The notes beneath the pieces were generated by a model. That model saw only the letters and a program-made list of their open reading frames with translations, was not told the origin of the DNA and made no database searches. Shown here in pieces: positions 4,879-11,420 of a DNA stretch of 64,000 nt. The DNA is from Escherichia phage LHE287: the sequence record PP761450.1; one strand, written 5' to 3'. Position 1 is the first letter of the stretch. Each line of letters begins with the position of its first letter. A program made the position numbers and the translations under genes.

Positions 4879-5249
4879 AACGTACCCCCGACAGAGATCA
4901 AGAACTCTTCTTGCATGGTCTTGACCGGGTGGTGGTTGCGGGTTTCGAACATGAAGCCCCAGCCACCGTCGGCGACGTTGCCAAAGGTCTTGACGCCAAA
5001 GGACTTCGTCCCGTTGGAGCAGGAATAGATGTCCAGGACGTATGGGCTACCCTGATTGTCGATCCCACGATTCACGTCGTCTGATACGCAGCGCTCAATC
5101 ATCTTCCCGTTCTTATACAGAACGAGGTCTTGGCCATACGCCTTGAAAGCATAAACACCGTTGGTAGACACTCCGGTGATGACAGGAGGGGCGGAAACAG
5201 CAGCAAAGGAAGCGCCCAGCAGGGCAACAGCGAGGATTAACTTTTTCAT
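4875..5249 (-). CDS. secreted protein (signal peptide)
   Basis: Start MKKLILAVALLGASFAAVSA at 5249. Confidence 0.5.
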   Translation of the reverse strand: MKKLILAVALLGASFAAVSAPPVITGVSTNGVYAFKAYGQDLVLYKNGKMIERCVSDDVNRGIDNQGSPYVLDIYSCSNGTKSFGVKTFGNVADGGWGFMFETRNHHPVKTMQEEFLISVGGTL

Positions 5250-5308
5250 GATATAGTCTCTTGGTTTCAAATAGACGGGGTAATCATACCCCGCCCAAAG
5301 TTATAGAA

Positions 5309-5548
5309 TTAACTGATGTGCTTCAGAAGAGCGAAGAGGATCGCGGCCTTGGCCTTTACCTTTCCTACGATGCCTGTTTCGACATCAACTTCTTCAGCAA
5401 CCCACTCTTTTCCCTTCTTGCTGATGATAACGTCACGACGCTGTGCGTAGACTTCTTTGGTCGCATACACACGGCGGAACCCTTTAGCGCGGAGCAATCC
5501 CCAATTGCGATCAATTTCTACTGAGGTTTCTACCATTTTGTTCTTCAT
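5309..5548 (-). CDS. hypothetical protein
   Basis: 79-aa ORF; upstream AAGGTAAG...TTATATC-ATG. Confidence 0.45.
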   Translation of the reverse strand: MKNKMVETSVEIDRNWGLLRAKGFRRVYATKEVYAQRRDVIISKKGKEWVAEEVDVETGIVGKVKAKAAILFALLKHIS

Positions 5549-5599
5549 GATATAATCTTACCTTTCAACCCGGTGAACCCATCGTTCGCCAGTTATTGA

Positions 5600-5629
5600 A
5601 TAATACGCATTTACCTTATAGAAGTAAAC
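5600..5629 (-). promoter_or_regulatory. candidate sigma70/T4-early-type promoter (GTTTAC-N18-TATTAT)
   Basis: Minus-strand -35 GTTTAC (5624-5629) and -10 TATTAT (5600-5605), upstream of gene starting at 5548. Confidence 0.4.
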
Positions 5630-5640
5630 CCCTAAAAGTA

Positions 5641-5667
5641 AAAATCCCCAACAAACGTTGGGGATTT
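5641..5667 (-). terminator. rho-independent terminator
   Basis: ccccaac/gttgggg stem followed on the minus strand by TTTTTACTTTT; downstream of gene 5682..5906. Confidence 0.55.
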
Positions 5668-5681
5668 AATAAAAGTTATGC

Positions 5682-5906
5682 CTATTTAATTTCTCGGCTT
5701 GAATTTTCTAGTTCTAATTTTCTTATAGCGGAAATTCTGCCTTCATCAGTTGCGGGAAACTCCCAAACAGCACGACGCCCATTGTTGGTATCACAACTTG
5801 CCAGCCAGCAGAAATTAGAGGGGTCCTTAAACAAGACCAACTTCGGATTTCCTAAATTGATGAGGTTAAACGGGGTGAGGTCAACAACACATGATATAGC
5901 AGACAT
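5682..5906 (-). CDS. hypothetical small protein flanked by the two repeat copies
   Basis: 74-aa ORF, ATG with AGAAGG RBS. Confidence 0.4.
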   Translation of the reverse strand: MSAISCVVDLTPFNLINLGNPKLVLFKDPSNFCWLASCDTNNGRRAVWEFPATDEGRISAIRKLELENSSREIK

Positions 5907-5951
5907 AACATATACCTTCTTTCAATGAACGGGAACGCCCCGATCTATGAA

Positions 5952-6020
5952 TTCAATAATACGCATTTACCTTATAGAAGTAAACCCCTAAAAGTAAAAA
6001 TCCCCAACGTTTGTTGGGGA
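5952..6020. repeat. Direct repeat copy 2
   Basis: Same core as 5596..5667; the hairpin is present with its loop reverse-complemented. Confidence 0.7.
5956..5985 (-). promoter_or_regulatory. candidate sigma70/T4-early-type promoter (GTTTAC-N18-TATTAT)
   Basis: Same element as 5600..5629, upstream of gene starting at 5906. Confidence 0.4.
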
Positions 6021-6022
6021 CT
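5996..6022 (-). terminator. rho-independent terminator
   Basis: ccccaac/gttgggg stem plus U-run directly after the stop of the ACP-like gene. Confidence 0.5.
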
Positions 6023-6026
6023 TCTG

Positions 6027-6350
6027 TTATTTGCGCAGGGCAACCACGAGTTCAGCGAGTTCACCCATGGTCGGGTCGTCGCCTTTACTACCTAGCCACC
6101 CGTCGTCGATTTCGACCTGAAACTCTTCTTCGAGGTCCATTACAATTTCGATAGCGTCCAGTTCATCACCGCCGAGGTCTTTCTTGGTACGGAGGCCAGC
6201 CAGCTTGTCCAGGGCGTCCTCGTTCTGAGATGCCACGTCGTCCAGCAATTTGCGCTTGTCATCGTCACGCCACAGATCCATATTCAGATTGTCAGTGGCG
6301 TACTGAGCCAGATGACGCATGACTTCAACATATGTTGGCTTACTGCTCAT
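6027..6350 (-). CDS. acyl-carrier-protein-like protein (Ser-to-Glu at the phosphopantetheine site)
   Basis: KDLGGDELDAIEIVMDLEEEFQVEIDD aligns with E. coli ACP [27 protein letters not shown] (from memory); the conserved Ser is Glu here. Confidence 0.6.
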   Translation of the reverse strand: MSSKPTYVEVMRHLAQYATDNLNMDLWRDDDKRKLLDDVASQNEDALDKLAGLRTKKDLGGDELDAIEIVMDLEEEFQVEIDDGWLGSKGDDPTMGELAELVVALRK

Positions 6351-6369
6351 GCTACTTCTCCCAAAGAAA

Positions 6370-6385
6370 GGCGGGTTGCCCCGCC
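6370..6385 (-). terminator. GNRA-loop hairpin plus U-run after the vWA gene
   Basis: ggcggg-ttgc-cccgcc; minus strand shows a GCAA loop followed by TTTCTTT. Confidence 0.45.
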
Positions 6386-6392
6386 CGTTGGA

Positions 6393-8594
6393 TTAGATTT
6401 TGATTTCTTTCTCTGTCAGTTCGGCAGTGACCTTGTACTTCACGCCATCCACTTCAACTTCCATGGTGGACTCTTCCAGGTCGAGGTCGGTGAACCAGCC
6501 GTGGCCAGCAACGATACCATACACCACTTTAGACAGTGTCTTGTTCAGGGCACGGACTTCGGTGATGGCCGCCTTGGCAGCAGCGTCGATCCAGTTTTCG
6601 ATCAGCTGTTTCTGTAAGGCTTCAGGCACGGCAGTGATCATAGGAGACTTCACGAATGCTTCGTACTCTTTCAGAGCATTGGCGATGAACAAGTCACCAG
6701 CATTGAGTTTCTTGTTCTCTGCGATCTTCTTCTGTACTGCCGCGATGCTCGGTAGTGAAGACGCCCCGGCGATCTTCACGTTCAGCTCACGGCTCATGTA
6801 GAAGTCGGTAGACTCTTTGGTCTCAGTCTTCGGTGAGAAGCCGTAATCGCGGATGCCGTAGGAGGACAGGAACTCGGCCGCCTCAGCGCCGTACTGTACT
6901 GCCAGGCCTTTGGCGTTACCCTTACCAACCAGGGCGTCTCGATAGAACTTCAGCACCTTCTGCTTGCCTTTCAGGGCTTCCAGACGGACATTATCCGCAA
7001 AGAACTGAGCAGCACTGATGTTCTTGACCATGGCGCGGTTGACCAGCGGTACGCTTTCCAGGTTCAGGACAAACACTTCCGGGCCACCAAACACGTGGAC
7101 GCCCATTTCGATCAGCTTCTGTACAACTTCGATATCAGCCTTGAACGGCAGAGTCTTCACGTTAATGATACCGTCTTTGACGATGGTGTAGTTGCGCCAC
7201 TGGAAAGTATCCAGTTCTTCAGGCAGGCCAAACTTCTTCTGTGCGAATTCAGGCACAGCCACAGTACCGTGTTGAATTGTACGCACACTGATGTTCGGGC
7301 GCTCGGAGTTATAGACCAAATCACTGATTGGCACAACACCCAGATCGTTGGTAGGTTCGAACGTCGGGTTCCACTCTTCGTGTTCTGCCAGCTTGAGAGC
7401 CAGGGCTTTACGCTCTTCTTTGGACTGAGCATTCGCGATCTGTTCTGCCAGCTTGTCTTCGGTGTCGTCGGTTTTCTGCACAGTACCGCGCCCGATACTC
7501 TTATAGGAGAACATCGGATGCTTGGTAGCAACAGGTACACCAGCTTCAGCCAGGTACGTCAGCACATCAACGACGGTGGTCGCATCTTCAGCCGGAACCA
7601 GGTCATAGTCAATACCGTCAACGCCGCGCAGCTGGTCGTCAACAATCGCCTGAACCAGATCGTTCTTGATGTTGGAGTAGTCCTGCTTGGTGAAGCAGTT
7701 GCTGTACTGTTTGATGAAGCGAACGTCGCCCGTCTTCTTCAGCGCAGCCCAAACCAGATCTGCGTCCATAGTGTGTACACCGTAGAACGCCAGCACGTAT
7801 GCCGCCTGGATGTCCGTCAGGCTATCCATCTGGTCGATCATGTTAGGGTTTACAACCCACAGCTTGGTGACGCTCTCAGGGATGCTCACATAGCCGACCG
7901 GGTGAGAGTCATCGTCCTGCACCGCCAGTACTGTTGCCACACCGTTTTCGACGTAGATGGCATGGGTGTAGATGACTGGGACATCAACTTTCACCTTCGG
8001 CACTGATGACTTCAGCACGTTTTCCAGTTCGGTCTGGTATTCGGTCTGACCTTCGGCAAACACATGAGTCGCGCCAGAGCGCTCGGACATCAGAGCCAGC
8101 AGTTCGCGGTTACAGTGCCAGCCGTATTCGATGAAAGTAATGTTATCGAACGCAGAAGGCAAGGTTTCGGCGACGGCCAGGATTTCGTTTGAGCGCCAGC
8201 AGTTGTCATAACCATCGGTCATGAATGCCAGGTTGTTGACGTAACCAGGTTTCTTCAGGTCACGCGCAGTATCCATCGCCAGTTTCAACGGCTCAACGAA
8301 GCCAGTACATCCGGACGGTTGCAGGAAGCGATCGATCAGTTTGTTCAGCTCGCTCAGGTCAGACGCAGCACTAACCTGGCGGCCAGCGAACACAGTACCA
8401 AAGTCGCCTTTGGAGGAGAAATACAGAACGCTCACAGTGTCTTCCGGTTTCACCAGGGAAGGCAGGTTCTCCTTCAGATGCTTACGGACTTCAGGGAGCG
8501 CACGGTACATAGAGCCGGAAATGTCTACAACGATTACATGGTTGGACGGGGTAGCAGTCGCAACCGCATTCTTAAATTCTAATGATTCAATCAT
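6393..8594 (-). CDS. von Willebrand factor A (vWA) domain protein, 733 aa
   Basis: N-terminal MIDAS-like VVVDISGSM...TDG; start taken at MIESLEF (8594) with AAGGCGAAGAG RBS. Confidence 0.7.
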   Translation of the reverse strand: MIESLEFKNAVATATPSNHVIVVDISGSMYRALPEVRKHLKENLPSLVKPEDTVSVLYFSSKGDFGTVFAGRQVSAASDLSELNKLIDRFLQPSGCTGFVEPLKLAMDTARDLKKPGYVNNLAFMTDGYDNCWRSNEILAVAETLPSAFDNITFIEYGWHCNRELLALMSERSGATHVFAEGQTEYQTELENVLKSSVPKVKVDVPVIYTHAIYVENGVATVLAVQDDDSHPVGYVSIPESVTKLWVVNPNMIDQMDSLTDIQAAYVLAFYGVHTMDADLVWAALKKTGDVRFIKQYSNCFTKQDYSNIKNDLVQAIVDDQLRGVDGIDYDLVPAEDATTVVDVLTYLAEAGVPVATKHPMFSYKSIGRGTVQKTDDTEDKLAEQIANAQSKEERKALALKLAEHEEWNPTFEPTNDLGVVPISDLVYNSERPNISVRTIQHGTVAVPEFAQKKFGLPEELDTFQWRNYTIVKDGIINVKTLPFKADIEVVQKLIEMGVHVFGGPEVFVLNLESVPLVNRAMVKNISAAQFFADNVRLEALKGKQKVLKFYRDALVGKGNAKGLAVQYGAEAAEFLSSYGIRDYGFSPKTETKESTDFYMSRELNVKIAGASSLPSIAAVQKKIAENKKLNAGDLFIANALKEYEAFVKSPMITAVPEALQKQLIENWIDAAAKAAITEVRALNKTLSKVVYGIVAGHGWFTDLDLEESTMEVEVDGVKYKVTAELTEKEIKI

Positions 8595-8802
8595 TGTTCT
8601 CTTCGCCTTGTGCGTAAGGGTTAAGTTCAGACTCATCAGCGGCTTCGATGCGCGTCTTTACAGAGTCCAGCATATTGTTGATAAATTCACGAGACTGCTC
8701 CAGCTGAGCCAAGAGCACATCCTTTGGAGCATAGTTCTGAATGCAAGCCGGAATACTTTCAGACGTCGCCTTCAGGTCGGTAAAACATTCTTTCAGTATC
8801 AT
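8587..8802 (-). CDS. hypothetical protein
   Basis: 71-aa ORF ending 8 nt inside the vWA start. Confidence 0.4.
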   Translation of the reverse strand: MILKECFTDLKATSESIPACIQNYAPKDVLLAQLEQSREFINNMLDSVKTRIEAADESELNPYAQGEENND

Positions 8803-8880
8803 TTGATCTCACTTAACAGAGACGACGCCCTGTTGGGATTTAATAGCGGTCTTCACAGGCATCAGGTTTCCCTCAAAACA

Positions 8881-8896
8881 GGGGAGTTGCCTCCCC
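8881..8896 (-). terminator. GNRA-loop hairpin after the NAMPT-family gene
   Basis: ggggag-ttgc-ctcccc; followed on the minus strand by GTTTT. Confidence 0.45.
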
Positions 8897-8904
8897 TTCG
8901 GTTA

Positions 8905-10569
8905 TCAGATTTGTGAGGCCAGTTCTGTCACCAGAGGAGCGGCACGAACACGCGCATCTTCCAGTGTTTGAGTATTGAAGAACTCGCCATCACGATACAC
9001 CAGCTGGTGCTGGTTGTCGGCGTCTTGCACCTGATCAAAGGTGATACCGTCAACCAACACTAGTTTACCCTGAGAGTCTTTAATGACTTTAAGGAAACCA
9101 CGCGCAGACTTTTTAGTCCCGCCTTTATCGGTCTTCGGCTCTTTGAAGATCTCACGGAATTCACCGTTCACTTTACCAGCCGTGGCTTTCACTGCTGTGC
9201 CAGTACTGTCACGGGTGTTCATCTGGTAGGTGTAGGAACCGATACCGAACACCACGTTGATGGAAGCGAAGTTCCGGTCAGCCAGACGGCTAAAGATCTG
9301 GTCTTCACGCGCCAGGGTGATAGAATCACCGTAGATCAGGCCGATGTGCTCATCCAACAGGAAGTGCCCAGTTTCAGTCTGGGTGCCACCAAAGATCTCC
9401 CACAGGCGCTGGATAGAGCCGACCGCTTCTGAACGGCTGATGATATTACGGTCATCTACCATCAGAGAGTTGATCGTGCCTTCGCCTGTGATCAGGTGAT
9501 AGGTGTTCGTCTCTTCGATGTGGATAACTTCGGTGCTGCTAGACACGCCGCTGATGTTCAGCGTAGCGCGGTCTTTGAACCCCTCGATGCGGTAGCCGCC
9601 AACGATGTGTACAGGGTCGCCCGAGTCGGGGCGAATCACGACTTTACCATTGCGCGCCATGATAATGTCTTTCAGGCGAGGCAGATAGTCGTCGATGACC
9701 TGCCAGTAATCCCACGCATCAGACACGATGCTGACGATGCCATCAGGATACACGTCCTGCACCAGGCGGCGGAAGGTTTCGAATTCGCCATCCTTCGTGC
9801 CCATACACATCACCGCATGTTCCGTTGCGGCAACCGACCCAGCAACGACATAGTCTTCGTCGATGTCTGCGCCATAATACTCTTCTACGAAGTCCAGGGC
9901 AGGGTTGGTATCGGTGCCTTTGAAGAACACCAGATGACCGGAACCGGAAGACGCGGCATCATGCCACCCGCTCATACCACGAAAGGAGAAGTCGTGGCCT
10001 TGGTAGTCGATGAACCAATGGTCCGGTGATACTCCCGTAGCGAGGGCAGCTTTCACCATCAGTGCCTTGTAATGCAAAGCTATGGTGGCGTTCGTCATCG
10101 GCTTCCAGATCTCAGAGCTGAACACAGTCTCCAGATAGTTGGTCAGCCAGTAGAACTCCGGCAGGGTATTGAACATCACATACACCGGAACGCCATACGG
10201 GCACATGGTACCTTCAGGCAGCGCGCGGACTTCGATAGGCAGGTAGCCGAGGTCATGCAGGGCTTCAATATGCTCTGTGCCGACGCGGCCTGGACCCAGG
10301 ACTTTGTTCATGCGACGGGCATACTTCTTCAGCACCTTGGCCTTCGGGCGCTGGAAGAATGCTTCGTCAAACAGTTCGTGGAACCAGGTCATGAAGCCCT
10401 GGATGCCCCAGACCACCACGCCGTTCTTCGGCAGGTGAGAGTTGAACAGTTTGTTAGAGCGCGGAGTTCCGTTGGAGAACACCAGCTCACTGCCTTCAGG
10501 GAACTGATAGATGTGCCCCGATTTGTAGAAGTCGATCGCATGGATTGGGTCTAAGTGGCGCATGCTCAT
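8905..10569 (-). CDS. nicotinamide phosphoribosyltransferase family protein (NadV/Namat-like)
   Basis: 554 aa with NAMPT-like sequence throughout (DFYKSGH..., GSVAATEHAVM, IRPDSGDP); stop/start overlap with upstream gene. Confidence 0.85.
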   Translation of the reverse strand: MSMRHLDPIHAIDFYKSGHIYQFPEGSELVFSNGTPRSNKLFNSHLPKNGVVVWGIQGFMTWFHELFDEAFFQRPKAKVLKKYARRMNKVLGPGRVGTEHIEALHDLGYLPIEVRALPEGTMCPYGVPVYVMFNTLPEFYWLTNYLETVFSSEIWKPMTNATIALHYKALMVKAALATGVSPDHWFIDYQGHDFSFRGMSGWHDAASSGSGHLVFFKGTDTNPALDFVEEYYGADIDEDYVVAGSVAATEHAVMCMGTKDGEFETFRRLVQDVYPDGIVSIVSDAWDYWQVIDDYLPRLKDIIMARNGKVVIRPDSGDPVHIVGGYRIEGFKDRATLNISGVSSSTEVIHIEETNTYHLITGEGTINSLMVDDRNIISRSEAVGSIQRLWEIFGGTQTETGHFLLDEHIGLIYGDSITLAREDQIFSRLADRNFASINVVFGIGSYTYQMNTRDSTGTAVKATAGKVNGEFREIFKEPKTDKGGTKKSARGFLKVIKDSQGKLVLVDGITFDQVQDADNQHQLVYRDGEFFNTQTLEDARVRAAPLVTELASQI

Positions 10570-11420
10570 TTTACACGTCCTGTATTTTCAGTTTTGAAAG
10601 GGAGCCCGTCGGCGGTGATGTTCTCCCACCAGACGGTGTCGGCATACACAGCATCATAGATCCCGTCGAAAACAGAGAGACCTTTGCTGAAGATGCCATG
10701 GGTAACGAAGAGCGTCATGTGCTTAGGCTTGTGCTTCTGAAGCTCTTTGCCTAACTCAACGAACGTGCGCCCACCGTCGCAGATATCATCGACCACCACC
10801 AGATAGCGGTCTTTGATCAGTTCAGGGTTTGTAACACTCACCCCAATGATCTCACCAGTCTTGGTGTCACGGTTCTTGTGACCGTAGACAACAGGAACAC
10901 CGTCCAACGACAGGCTGAGGGCTTCGGTCTTCTTAGCCGCGCCGCCGTCAGGGGCTACCAACACAGCGTTGTTCCCACGGATGAACCAGCCCAGATACTG
11001 ACGCACGATGTAATCTTGCGGGACAACATGGACGTTGTTGATCAGAGAAGACACAACATGGCTGTGAGGATCTTTGATCGCCACGCGGTCAAAGTTCATG
11101 CTATTGATGAACTCAGCTGCCCACTTCACAGACAGAGGCTCACCGAAGTCACAATGGCGGTCCTGGCGAGCATACGGGAAGTAAGGGATATACGCATGGA
11201 ATGTCGTCAGACGGTCCACGTTACCCAGACCACGAACGGCGTTTACCAGAAGCGCCAGCTCAATGAAGTCAGCCGATGATTTGATGTGAGCATCAATCGC
11301 CACGTTCTGAACGTGGCCGATAGGGATACCAGACTTTTGAATCTTGATATGTTCCTCACCACCTGGGAAGGTGAAGTGTTTGTAGAACACATCTTGGTCG
11401 TTCAATTTCAAACGAAACAT
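10566..11420 (-). CDS. ribose-phosphate pyrophosphokinase family protein (Prs/Adps-like)
   Basis: 284 aa with type I PRTase/PRPP motif VVVDDICDGGRTF; 4-nt overlap with the NAMPT-family gene. Confidence 0.75.
   Translation of the reverse strand: MFRLKLNDQDVFYKHFTFPGGEEHIKIQKSGIPIGHVQNVAIDAHIKSSADFIELALLVNAVRGLGNVDRLTTFHAYIPYFPYARQDRHCDFGEPLSVKWAAEFINSMNFDRVAIKDPHSHVVSSLINNVHVVPQDYIVRQYLGWFIRGNNAVLVAPDGGAAKKTEALSLSLDGVPVVYGHKNRDTKTGEIIGVSVTNPELIKDRYLVVVDDICDGGRTFVELGKELQKHKPKHMTLFVTHGIFSKGLSVFDGIYDAVYADTVWWENITADGLPFKTENTGRVK

Follow-up and report, generated by a model that had tools for sequence, protein, structure and literature searches.

Acyl carrier proteins (ACPs) receive 4′-phosphopantetheine from phosphopantetheinyl transferases (PPTases), which place it on the hydroxyl of a serine; in AcpP of Escherichia coli, the ACP of type II fatty-acid synthesis (FAS) and a member of family PF00550, this is Ser36. 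The divergent mitochondrial ACP (mACP) of Plasmodium falciparum is without the phosphopantetheine Ser and works in iron-sulphur (Fe-S) cluster biogenesis (PMC8547962), and in E. coli apo-ACP inhibits glycerol-3-phosphate acyltransferase more than holo-ACP and arrests growth (PMC3896788). Here, a stretch of 64,000 nucleotides from Escherichia phage LHE287 (sequence record PP761450.1; this whole stretch is called the window below) was analysed with respect to a gene at positions 6027-6350, which encodes an ACP-like protein with a glutamate at the position of the attachment Ser. An acidic residue, Glu or Asp, was found at this site in every member of the phage family examined. The observation of a viral acidic-site 'pseudo-ACP' is solid and family-wide; its mechanism is still conjecture.

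The window belongs to the genome of an Ackermannviridae phage and is, at 5000-9000, 97% identical to Escherichia phage AV101; a protein identical to the ACP-like protein of the window is encoded on an IMG/VR contig (L021). Many phage records, and PHROGs as well, have long given the gene the name 'acyl carrier protein'. The coordinates given in the initial annotation proved to be exact, and the strand, which had been left unstated there, is the minus strand, with the start codon ATG at 6350-6348 and the stop codon TAA at 6029-6027. The protein sequence is MSSKPTYVEVMRHLAQYATDNLNMDLWRDDDKRKLLDDVASQNEDALDKLAGLRTKKDLGGDELDAIEIVMDLEEEFQVEIDDGWLGSKGDDPTMGELAELVVALRK, and the parts of the gene are as follows.

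6027..6350, minus strand: coding sequence of the ACP-like protein (107 residues, isoelectric point 4.2, 27 Asp plus Glu against 13 Lys plus Arg)
6356..6362, minus strand: Shine-Dalgarno sequence GGGAGAA, a good ribosome-binding site read from the sequence, 5 nt 5′ of the ATG
6270..6350, minus strand: N-terminal extension, residues 1-27, not present in canonical ACPs, with conserved helix residues 7-21
6162..6164, minus strand: codon 63, GAA (Glu), aligned with AcpP Ser36 and the first helix II residue in the model
6108..6179, minus strand: helix II 'recognition helix' motif, residues 58-81, DLGGDELDAIEIVMDLEEEFQVEI, with the acidic residues D62, D65, E68 and E74-E76 kept
6060..6107, minus strand: Trp-containing loop, residues 82-97, DDGWLGSKGDDPTMGE, in place of ACP helix III

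The assignment to the ACPs is well beyond chance at the level of family and fold. The Pfam model PF00550 (PP-binding) matched the protein with 24.7 bits at a gathering threshold of 20.8, PF14573 stayed under its threshold (27.5 bits, threshold 32), and PHROG 4154, 'acyl carrier protein', gave an end-to-end match (2.6e-57). A profile built from 36 family members was compared with the sequences of the PDB and matched over residues 53-84 with E values from 4e-8 to 1e-6; all matches listed were ACPs, with the ACP of Bacillus subtilis at the top. The helix II signature (DLGxDSLDxxExVMxLEEEF) was detected by the family models, residues 57-81 are identical to residues 30-54 of E. coli AcpP at 16 of 25 positions, and the four-helix carrier-protein fold of the ACP/PP-binding superfamily was recovered at fold level. 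In the AlphaFold2 (AF2) model, which is of moderate confidence with a predicted local distance difference test score (pLDDT) of 77, helix II was assigned to residues 63-77 by DSSP. The membership in the ACP family claimed in the initial annotation thus stands, since the hidden Markov model (HMM) search with PF00550 scored over threshold and the profile found ACPs in the PDB; the absence of any significant hit, which had been named as a refutation, did not occur. The NCBIfam cut-offs for AcpP equivalogs were missed (TIGR00517/NF002149 test; 33.7 bits against 70.45 and 33.0 against 106). Compared with E. coli AcpP, the phage protein further differs by Glu or Asp in place of Ser36, by the additional N-terminal region of about 27 residues with a helix, by the Trp loop instead of helix III and by the lack of PPTase or acyl-transfer genes nearby.

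In the alignment, Glu63 (GAA, 6164-6162) stands opposite Ser36 of AcpP. Among 36 homologues from a collection of 5.8 billion proteins this site is Glu in 34 and Asp in two, with no Ser; in 17 genomes from IMG/VR it is Glu (GAA) in 11 and Asp (GAT) in six. The Asp form marks the Kuttervirus clade (Salmonella phages), which has GGD-D-LD with codon GAT. All seven much more distant, metagenomic full-length relatives found in a representative search (P0040-P0047, E values from 1e-25 to 1e-11) have D-E-L or D-D-L, Serratia phage 3M has LWFDELD and Erwinia phage Bue1 has FAMDELD. Six genera were covered, namely Agtrevirus, Limestonevirus, Kuttervirus, Taipeivirus, Nezavisimistyvirus and Miltonvirus, and the ACP-like gene is present in all six. 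Neither Ser nor Thr, Asn or Ala occurs at site 63 in any family member examined, and turning GAA or GAT into a codon for Ser would take two substitutions or more. The replacement of Ser by Glu proposed initially therefore holds for the window, with the refinement that family members have either Glu or Asp there and not Glu alone; the possibility raised at the same time, that relatives retain Ser and this copy is a variant, was checked and no homologue with Ser was found, so that the replacement is fixed in the lineage.

Since the surface position 66 nearby varies freely among at least ten residues (A, V, G, I or T, in distant relatives also H, F or L, and in other genera M, Y or R), the carboxylate at position 63 is selected and not drifting. 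Purifying selection acts on the gene as a whole, with a median ratio of nonsynonymous to synonymous substitution rates (dN/dS) of 0.19 (pairwise Nei-Gojobori, 23 pairs); between the window and locus L022, for instance, dS is 0.43 and dN 0.012. In alignment A2, 28 columns are invariant, and in the helix II region these are L59, G60, G61, D62, L64, D65, I67, E68 and E74, with E75-E76 nearly so. Among the 271 phage records matched by tblastn, no genome that was examined has an interrupted reading frame.

The conserved phosphopantetheine Ser expected of a functional carrier is absent from all homologues examined, and because the hydroxyl on which PPTases act is gone, phosphopantetheinylation of the ACP-like protein would be impossible, judging from the residue at this site. 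No match to E. coli AcpS was obtained in Ackermannviridae by tblastn (Sfp-type enzymes were not searched), which is consistent with a protein that is not phosphopantetheinylated. The annotation of Shigella phage Gloob, over the part of its genome that spans the window, lists no PPTase, FAS, polyketide synthase (PKS) or acyl-transfer genes. By the AcpS search and the Gloob annotation, the enzymes that a carrier would be expected to have encoded beside it, whether a PPTase or acyl-transfer, FAS or PKS enzymes, were thus not found. Literature searches returned no report of a missing Ser in phage ACPs and none of a proposed function of the gene.

Two parts of the protein are additions to the ACP core. 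The N-terminal helix (residues 7-21) has Y7, V10, L14, A18, N21 and L22 invariant in A2, and in the Trp loop D83, W85, G87, D91, D92, P93, T94, G96 and E97 are invariant. The versions of Miltonvirus and Bue1 are without the Trp loop, yet keep D-E-L-D. In Bue1 the ACP-like protein is an unannotated open reading frame (ORF) of 99 residues on the minus strand (NC_048702.1, about 84598-84897; L071, 3816-4115), 42 nt after the vWA gene; it carries FAMDELDYIEFIMELEDD and is matched by the family HMM with 6.6e-9, and the RefSeq record shows no gene in that stretch of 440 nt.

The closest Ser-bearing relatives of the ACP-like protein are other phage-borne ACPs. The GDDxT loop is also present in the Ser-bearing ACPs P0056, P0058 and P0063, of which P0056 lies on a phage contig (L015) beside a RusA-family gene and P0063 on a phage contig (L073) with terminase and ParB-domain genes; P0063 reads GGDSLD...DDPTIGE where the window reads GGDELD...DDPTMGE. 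Ser-bearing phage ACPs (P0056 and P0063, and other families, e.g. PHROG 5934) share with the protein of the window the loop that joins helix II to the final helix, and differ from it in that Ser is kept, the N-terminal extension is absent and no vWA gene adjoins; they are presumably true carriers modified by the PPTase of the host. Because Ser-bearing ACPs with the same GDDxT loop exist, the Trp/GDDxT loop can be taken to predate the loss of Ser. The Ackermannviridae protein therefore looks like a descendant of a phage-borne lineage of true ACPs and not like a recent copy of host AcpP, with which the Bacillus ACP as best match in the PDB and the score far under the AcpP equivalog cut-off are consistent. 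A Glu-type relative, P0051, gave no match when searched by tblastn against sequenced phages.

It is proposed, tentatively, that the protein is a non-carrier mimic which docks ACP-binding proteins via its preserved acidic helix II. The four-helix ACP fold and the acidic helix II are kept, and the carrier chemistry would be lost. Given the inability to take 4′-phosphopantetheine, the protein would act stoichiometrically by protein-protein binding through helix II, the surface that is recognised by every ACP client enzyme. The carboxylate at the start of helix II could stand in for the negative charge of the phosphodiester of holo-ACP, and together with D58, D62 and D65 it may make a site for a divalent cation. 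During infection, proteins of the host that dock to AcpP would be occupied or redirected, candidate targets being AcpS, PlsB, the Lpx acyltransferases, the Fab enzymes, MukB, IscS and SpoT. The protein would in effect behave as an ACP locked in the 'apo' state, which the host could not convert to the holo form, i.e. a stable version of the apo-ACP inhibitor.

Both described systems offer analogies. Apo-AcpP is a competitive ligand of an ACP client, the behaviour which the decoy model would predict for the phage protein; it can be converted to the holo form by AcpS, whereas the phage protein presumably cannot. Like Plasmodium mACP, the phage protein combines an ACP fold with loss of the attachment Ser in a gene under selection, and mACP is retained and functional via protein-protein binding and not via acyl carriage, although it is organellar and the phage protein is viral. 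The replacement residue of Plasmodium mACP is hydrophobic (Phe), in contrast to the carboxylate in the phage protein. We know of no LYR-type partner of the phage protein, no search having been made for one. A decoy of host ACP partner enzymes, as the initial annotation suggested, is plausible by analogy, its basis being the conserved helix II surface and the toxicity of apo-ACP.

Several points weigh against this proposal. None of the tools used pointed to a binding partner. As the helix II motif belongs to the structural core too, its conservation is no proof that client docking is retained, and Glu and Asp are intrinsically favoured at the N-terminus of a helix; selection on site 63 could be partly structural. 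The protein is no closer to host AcpP than to other ACPs (B. subtilis ACP is the best match; 33.7 against 70.45 bits for the AcpP equivalog). From the conservation of the N-terminal helix and the Trp loop, a partner surface specific to the family is suggested, which is not on host AcpP. Finally, the AF2 model is of only moderate confidence (pLDDT 77). A host acpP mutation described in a Klebsiella paper for cells exposed to phage was also followed as a lead and dropped, as the phage concerned, mtp5, is a Slopekvirus and has no ACP-like gene. The vWA homologue is carried by Slopekviruses.

The gene upstream of the ACP-like gene is the candidate for a partner encoded by the phage itself.

6393..8636, minus strand: vWA protein of 747 residues (PHROG 2426, function unknown) with the metal-ion-dependent adhesion site (MIDAS) residues D38, S40, S42, T111 and D141; candidate partner

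The position of the ACP-like gene immediately downstream of a large vWA protein, noted initially, was confirmed, the distance being 42 nt. The MIDAS is complete, its residues D38, S40, S42, T111 and D141 being invariant in 59 homologues with 34-93% identity. The AF2 model of the vWA protein has a pLDDT of 87, and with Foldseek only its vWA and beta-sandwich part matched the PDB (4fx5, ArnB, ITIH1); roughly the C-terminal half matches nothing solved in the PDB, and no function could be derived for it. The ACP-like gene follows the vWA gene after about 42 nt in every Ackermannviridae-like contig examined that covers the region (L004-L009, L017-L036 and Bue1), with the exception of Miltonvirus, where in Serratia phage 3M three small genes lie between the two, which are less than 900 nt apart and on the same strand. 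The vWA family as such comprises 503 phage records, including RB43, Slopekvirus and Karamvirus-like phages (Straboviridae), pf16, Bacillus phage AR9 and Rhizobium phages, and also has chromosomal bacterial homologues. In RB43, phT4A and pf16 the gene downstream of vWA is not ACP-like, and the family HMM had no match in those loci. Apart from one bacterial locus, co-occurrence of the pair was accordingly not found beyond Ackermannviridae, and an obligate vWA/ACP-like module was rejected, given the missing association in these three phages and its occurrence at only one of 31 bacterial loci (L040).

Two records labelled 'Enterococcus phage' (OR844942.1 and OR846588.1) were encountered; a record labelled Enterococcus phage Efm 3-10 has Kuttervirus-like vWA and ACP-like genes, with a vWA protein 82% identical to that of the window. 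Several small OR84xxxx contigs labelled 'Listeria/Staphylococcus phage' carry AcpS-like or ACP-like bacterial genes. These entries are probably mislabelled or contaminated.

Acidic residues at the Ser site were also encountered in bacteria. Among the best 150 remote matches, about 180 matched domains were counted, 40 of them with Glu or Asp at the site, a count that gives no estimate of frequency, being biased because the query profile itself has Glu there. A scan of one genome per species yielded 30 bacterial acidic-site loci, mainly in Planctomycetes and Verrucomicrobia, and a vWA gene lies beside L040 only. Many of the bacterial proteins have lipoprotein signal sequences (L041-L050, L054 and others; P0090, P0095, P0120, P0128, P0132, P0151 and P0159), or the domain is present in tandem or at the C-terminus; C-terminal domains of large proteins occur in Kitasatospora, Nostoc and others, namely in a Kitasatospora protein of 1199 residues and in repeat proteins of Nostoc, Lachnospiraceae and Bacteroidales. 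A bacterial subgroup of about 210-240 residues shares the C-terminal extension …NEPQDGGLRAxQVG…LPNPRGHELVFVP…. Exported proteins would not be expected to meet the cytoplasmic PPTase, and the bacterial acidic-site domains would for this reason be further non-carrier uses of the fold. We know of no description of bacterial acidic-site ACP-like proteins.

With regard to what the protein binds, the vWA/MIDAS protein as alternative partner fits the same data about as well as a decoy of host enzymes. In integrin I-domains and anthrax-receptor vWA domains the Mg2+ of the MIDAS is bound by an acidic residue of the ligand, and Glu and Asp interchange among ligands. By analogy, the small phage protein with its exposed Glu or Asp, encoded beside a vWA protein with an intact MIDAS, could complete the coordination of Mg2+ with residue 63 at the tip of helix II, so that the ACP fold would serve the vWA protein as adaptor or regulator and would not mimic a host protein; this is considered unlikely. 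The adjacency across Ackermannviridae-like contigs and the proximity in Serratia phage 3M speak for such a pair, as do the shared transcription unit, which ends just past the ACP-like gene, the invariance of the MIDAS residues down to 34% identity, the obligatory carboxylate with its Glu/Asp interchange as in MIDAS ligands, and the bacterial locus L040, where a Glu-type ACP-like gene stands in an operon-like run with a YfbK-type vWA gene. However, because the Ackermannviridae backbone is syntenic throughout, adjacency is weak evidence of a partnership, and, in a departure from what a dedicated MIDAS pair would show, the vWA family is far wider, occurring in other phages such as RB43, phT4A and pf16 without an ACP-like gene; a vWA neighbour was likewise detectable at only one of the 31 bacterial loci. 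The more specific form, in which Glu/Asp63 bridges the MIDAS metal and the ACP fold has been turned into a dedicated vWA ligand or adaptor that might tether host ACP-client enzymes to the vWA protein, has a rather low probability. Binding of a different family-specific partner, e.g. a phage enzyme or an assembly complex, through the N-terminal helix and Trp loop, with Glu/Asp63 serving mainly as helix N-cap and for stability, is doubtful. ACP-fold proteins are well known as structural subunits of large complexes, and the residues most strongly conserved as a family-specific trait are not in the ACP core (Y7, V10, L14, A18, N21, L22, D83, W85, G87 and D91-T94). A subunit of this kind would also be in line with the function of Plasmodium mACP without Ser (PMC8547962) and with the recurrence of acidic-site domains in unrelated bacterial settings, which suggests a general non-carrier use. 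Yet a pure stability role would allow Ser, Thr and Asn as caps, none of which is found in any member, no candidate partner was identified, and the retention of D-E-L-D in Miltonvirus and Bue1, where the Trp loop is missing, makes the carboxylate motif the more universal feature.

A carrier function with new chemistry is also conceivable, with cargo on the carboxylate of Glu/Asp63, ADP-ribosylation, or a cofactor on another residue. The amino-group carrier LysW makes its attachment via a Glu carboxylate, and the obligatory carboxylate of the phage protein occupies precisely the carrier position; immediately upstream there are NAD-related genes, and one relative (L005) encodes a Mod-like ADP-ribosyltransferase about 1 kb downstream. 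Such chemistry is nevertheless very improbable, as no ligase, ATP-grasp enzyme or transferase is conserved beside the gene and the ADP-ribosyltransferase is present in only some relatives. Moreover, no other Ser, Thr or Cys is conserved near the site (position 55 is T, V, C, A or P), and the Glu/Asp swap alters the reach of the side chain, something seldom seen where a catalytic attachment is made. A pseudogene would be expected to lose the key Ser, but the idea of a decaying remnant of a phage ACP, or of a sequencing or annotation artefact, is effectively refuted by the frame kept intact in the 271-record set, the 28 invariant columns and the gene's own ribosome-binding site. A sequencing variant or pseudogene was ruled out by the fixed Glu/Asp, by the distance of GAA and GAT from Ser codons and by the dN/dS of about 0.19, and since the acidic residue is kept under this selection, the gene is not a remnant.

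The ACP-like gene is the last of a minus-strand unit in which a Prs-like gene, a NAMPT-like gene, a small ORF and the vWA gene precede it. Read through the 42-nt gap, the vWA gene and the ACP-like gene share one frame. Further features of the surroundings are listed below.

6369..6386, minus strand: GC-rich hairpin GGGCGGG-GCAA-CCCGCCT with TTCTTT as a short T-rich tail, within the 42 nt that separate the vWA gene from the ACP-like gene, terminator-like or attenuator-like
5994..6020, minus strand: strong hairpin TCCCCAAC-AAAC-GTTGGGGA followed by TTTTTAC, beginning 6 nt past the ACP-like stop codon, an intrinsic-terminator-like end of the unit
5956..5984, minus strand: match to a sigma-70-like promoter, TTTACT-17 nt-TATTAT, for the next gene
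8905-10569, minus strand: NAMPT-like gene (NCBIfam NF006629, 1.2e-141)
10566-11420, minus strand: ribose-phosphate-diphosphokinase (Prs)-like gene, under the Prs cut-offs, with a 4-nt overlap with the NAMPT-like gene

At a spot equivalent to that of the hairpin in the gap, a terminator was placed by the annotators of the Klebsiella phage Menlow record. The element of about 65 nt made up of hairpin, T-run and promoter at 5956-6020 recurs at 5600-5667 (89% identity over 92 aligned nt), where it follows the next gene (74 residues) and has its 4-nt loop inverted (GTTT against AAAC). The repeated element looks like a terminator-promoter cassette that punctuates the small-gene region.

The NAMPT-like and Prs-like genes, which share a strand run with vWA and the ACP-like gene, have the make-up of the phage NAD+ reconstitution pathway NARP1, which consists of Adps and Namat (bioRxiv 10.1101/2024.02.11.579819, PMC12774641). 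In a distant relative (L006) the vWA and ACP-like genes are kept and the NAD pair is absent. The Mod-like ADP-ribosyltransferase gene of L005 (4029-4535; PF26816, 168 residues) lies some 1 kb past the ACP-like gene, downstream, where the small genes are variable; it is present in some relatives (also in the annotation of Shigella phage MK-13) and not in the window, and others have denV there. About 7 kb upstream of vWA, L006 has a gene with the helical domain of 5-hydroxymethyluracil DNA kinase (950-2170; PF18723, thymidine hypermodification), and at the corresponding position in Gloob stands gp124, a hypothetical gene of 406 residues. PADLOC matched neither the ACP-like nor the vWA protein, nor any of the small proteins encoded beside them, and neither ACP nor vWA turned up in a text search of the NARP1 paper (PMC12774641) and of the paper on the EVADES anti-defence catalogue.

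The Ackermannviridae, which include phages of Salmonella, E. coli O157, Klebsiella, Shigella and Dickeya, some of them used or proposed for biocontrol, thus have a core gene that is labelled 'acyl carrier protein' and encodes a protein for which the implied chemistry would be impossible. The label pseudo-ACP would correct this annotation and take the gene off lists of 'auxiliary metabolic genes', and would direct attention to protein binding as its role, whether in the takeover of the host or in whatever the vWA/MIDAS protein does. If the protein were a MIDAS ligand, the carrier-protein fold would have been put to a new use, and the vWA family, which about 500 sequenced phages possess, would become open to functional study for the first time. 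The phage protein may also represent, in a form amenable to experiment, a broader branch of the ACP fold that has no carrier function and is so far undescribed.

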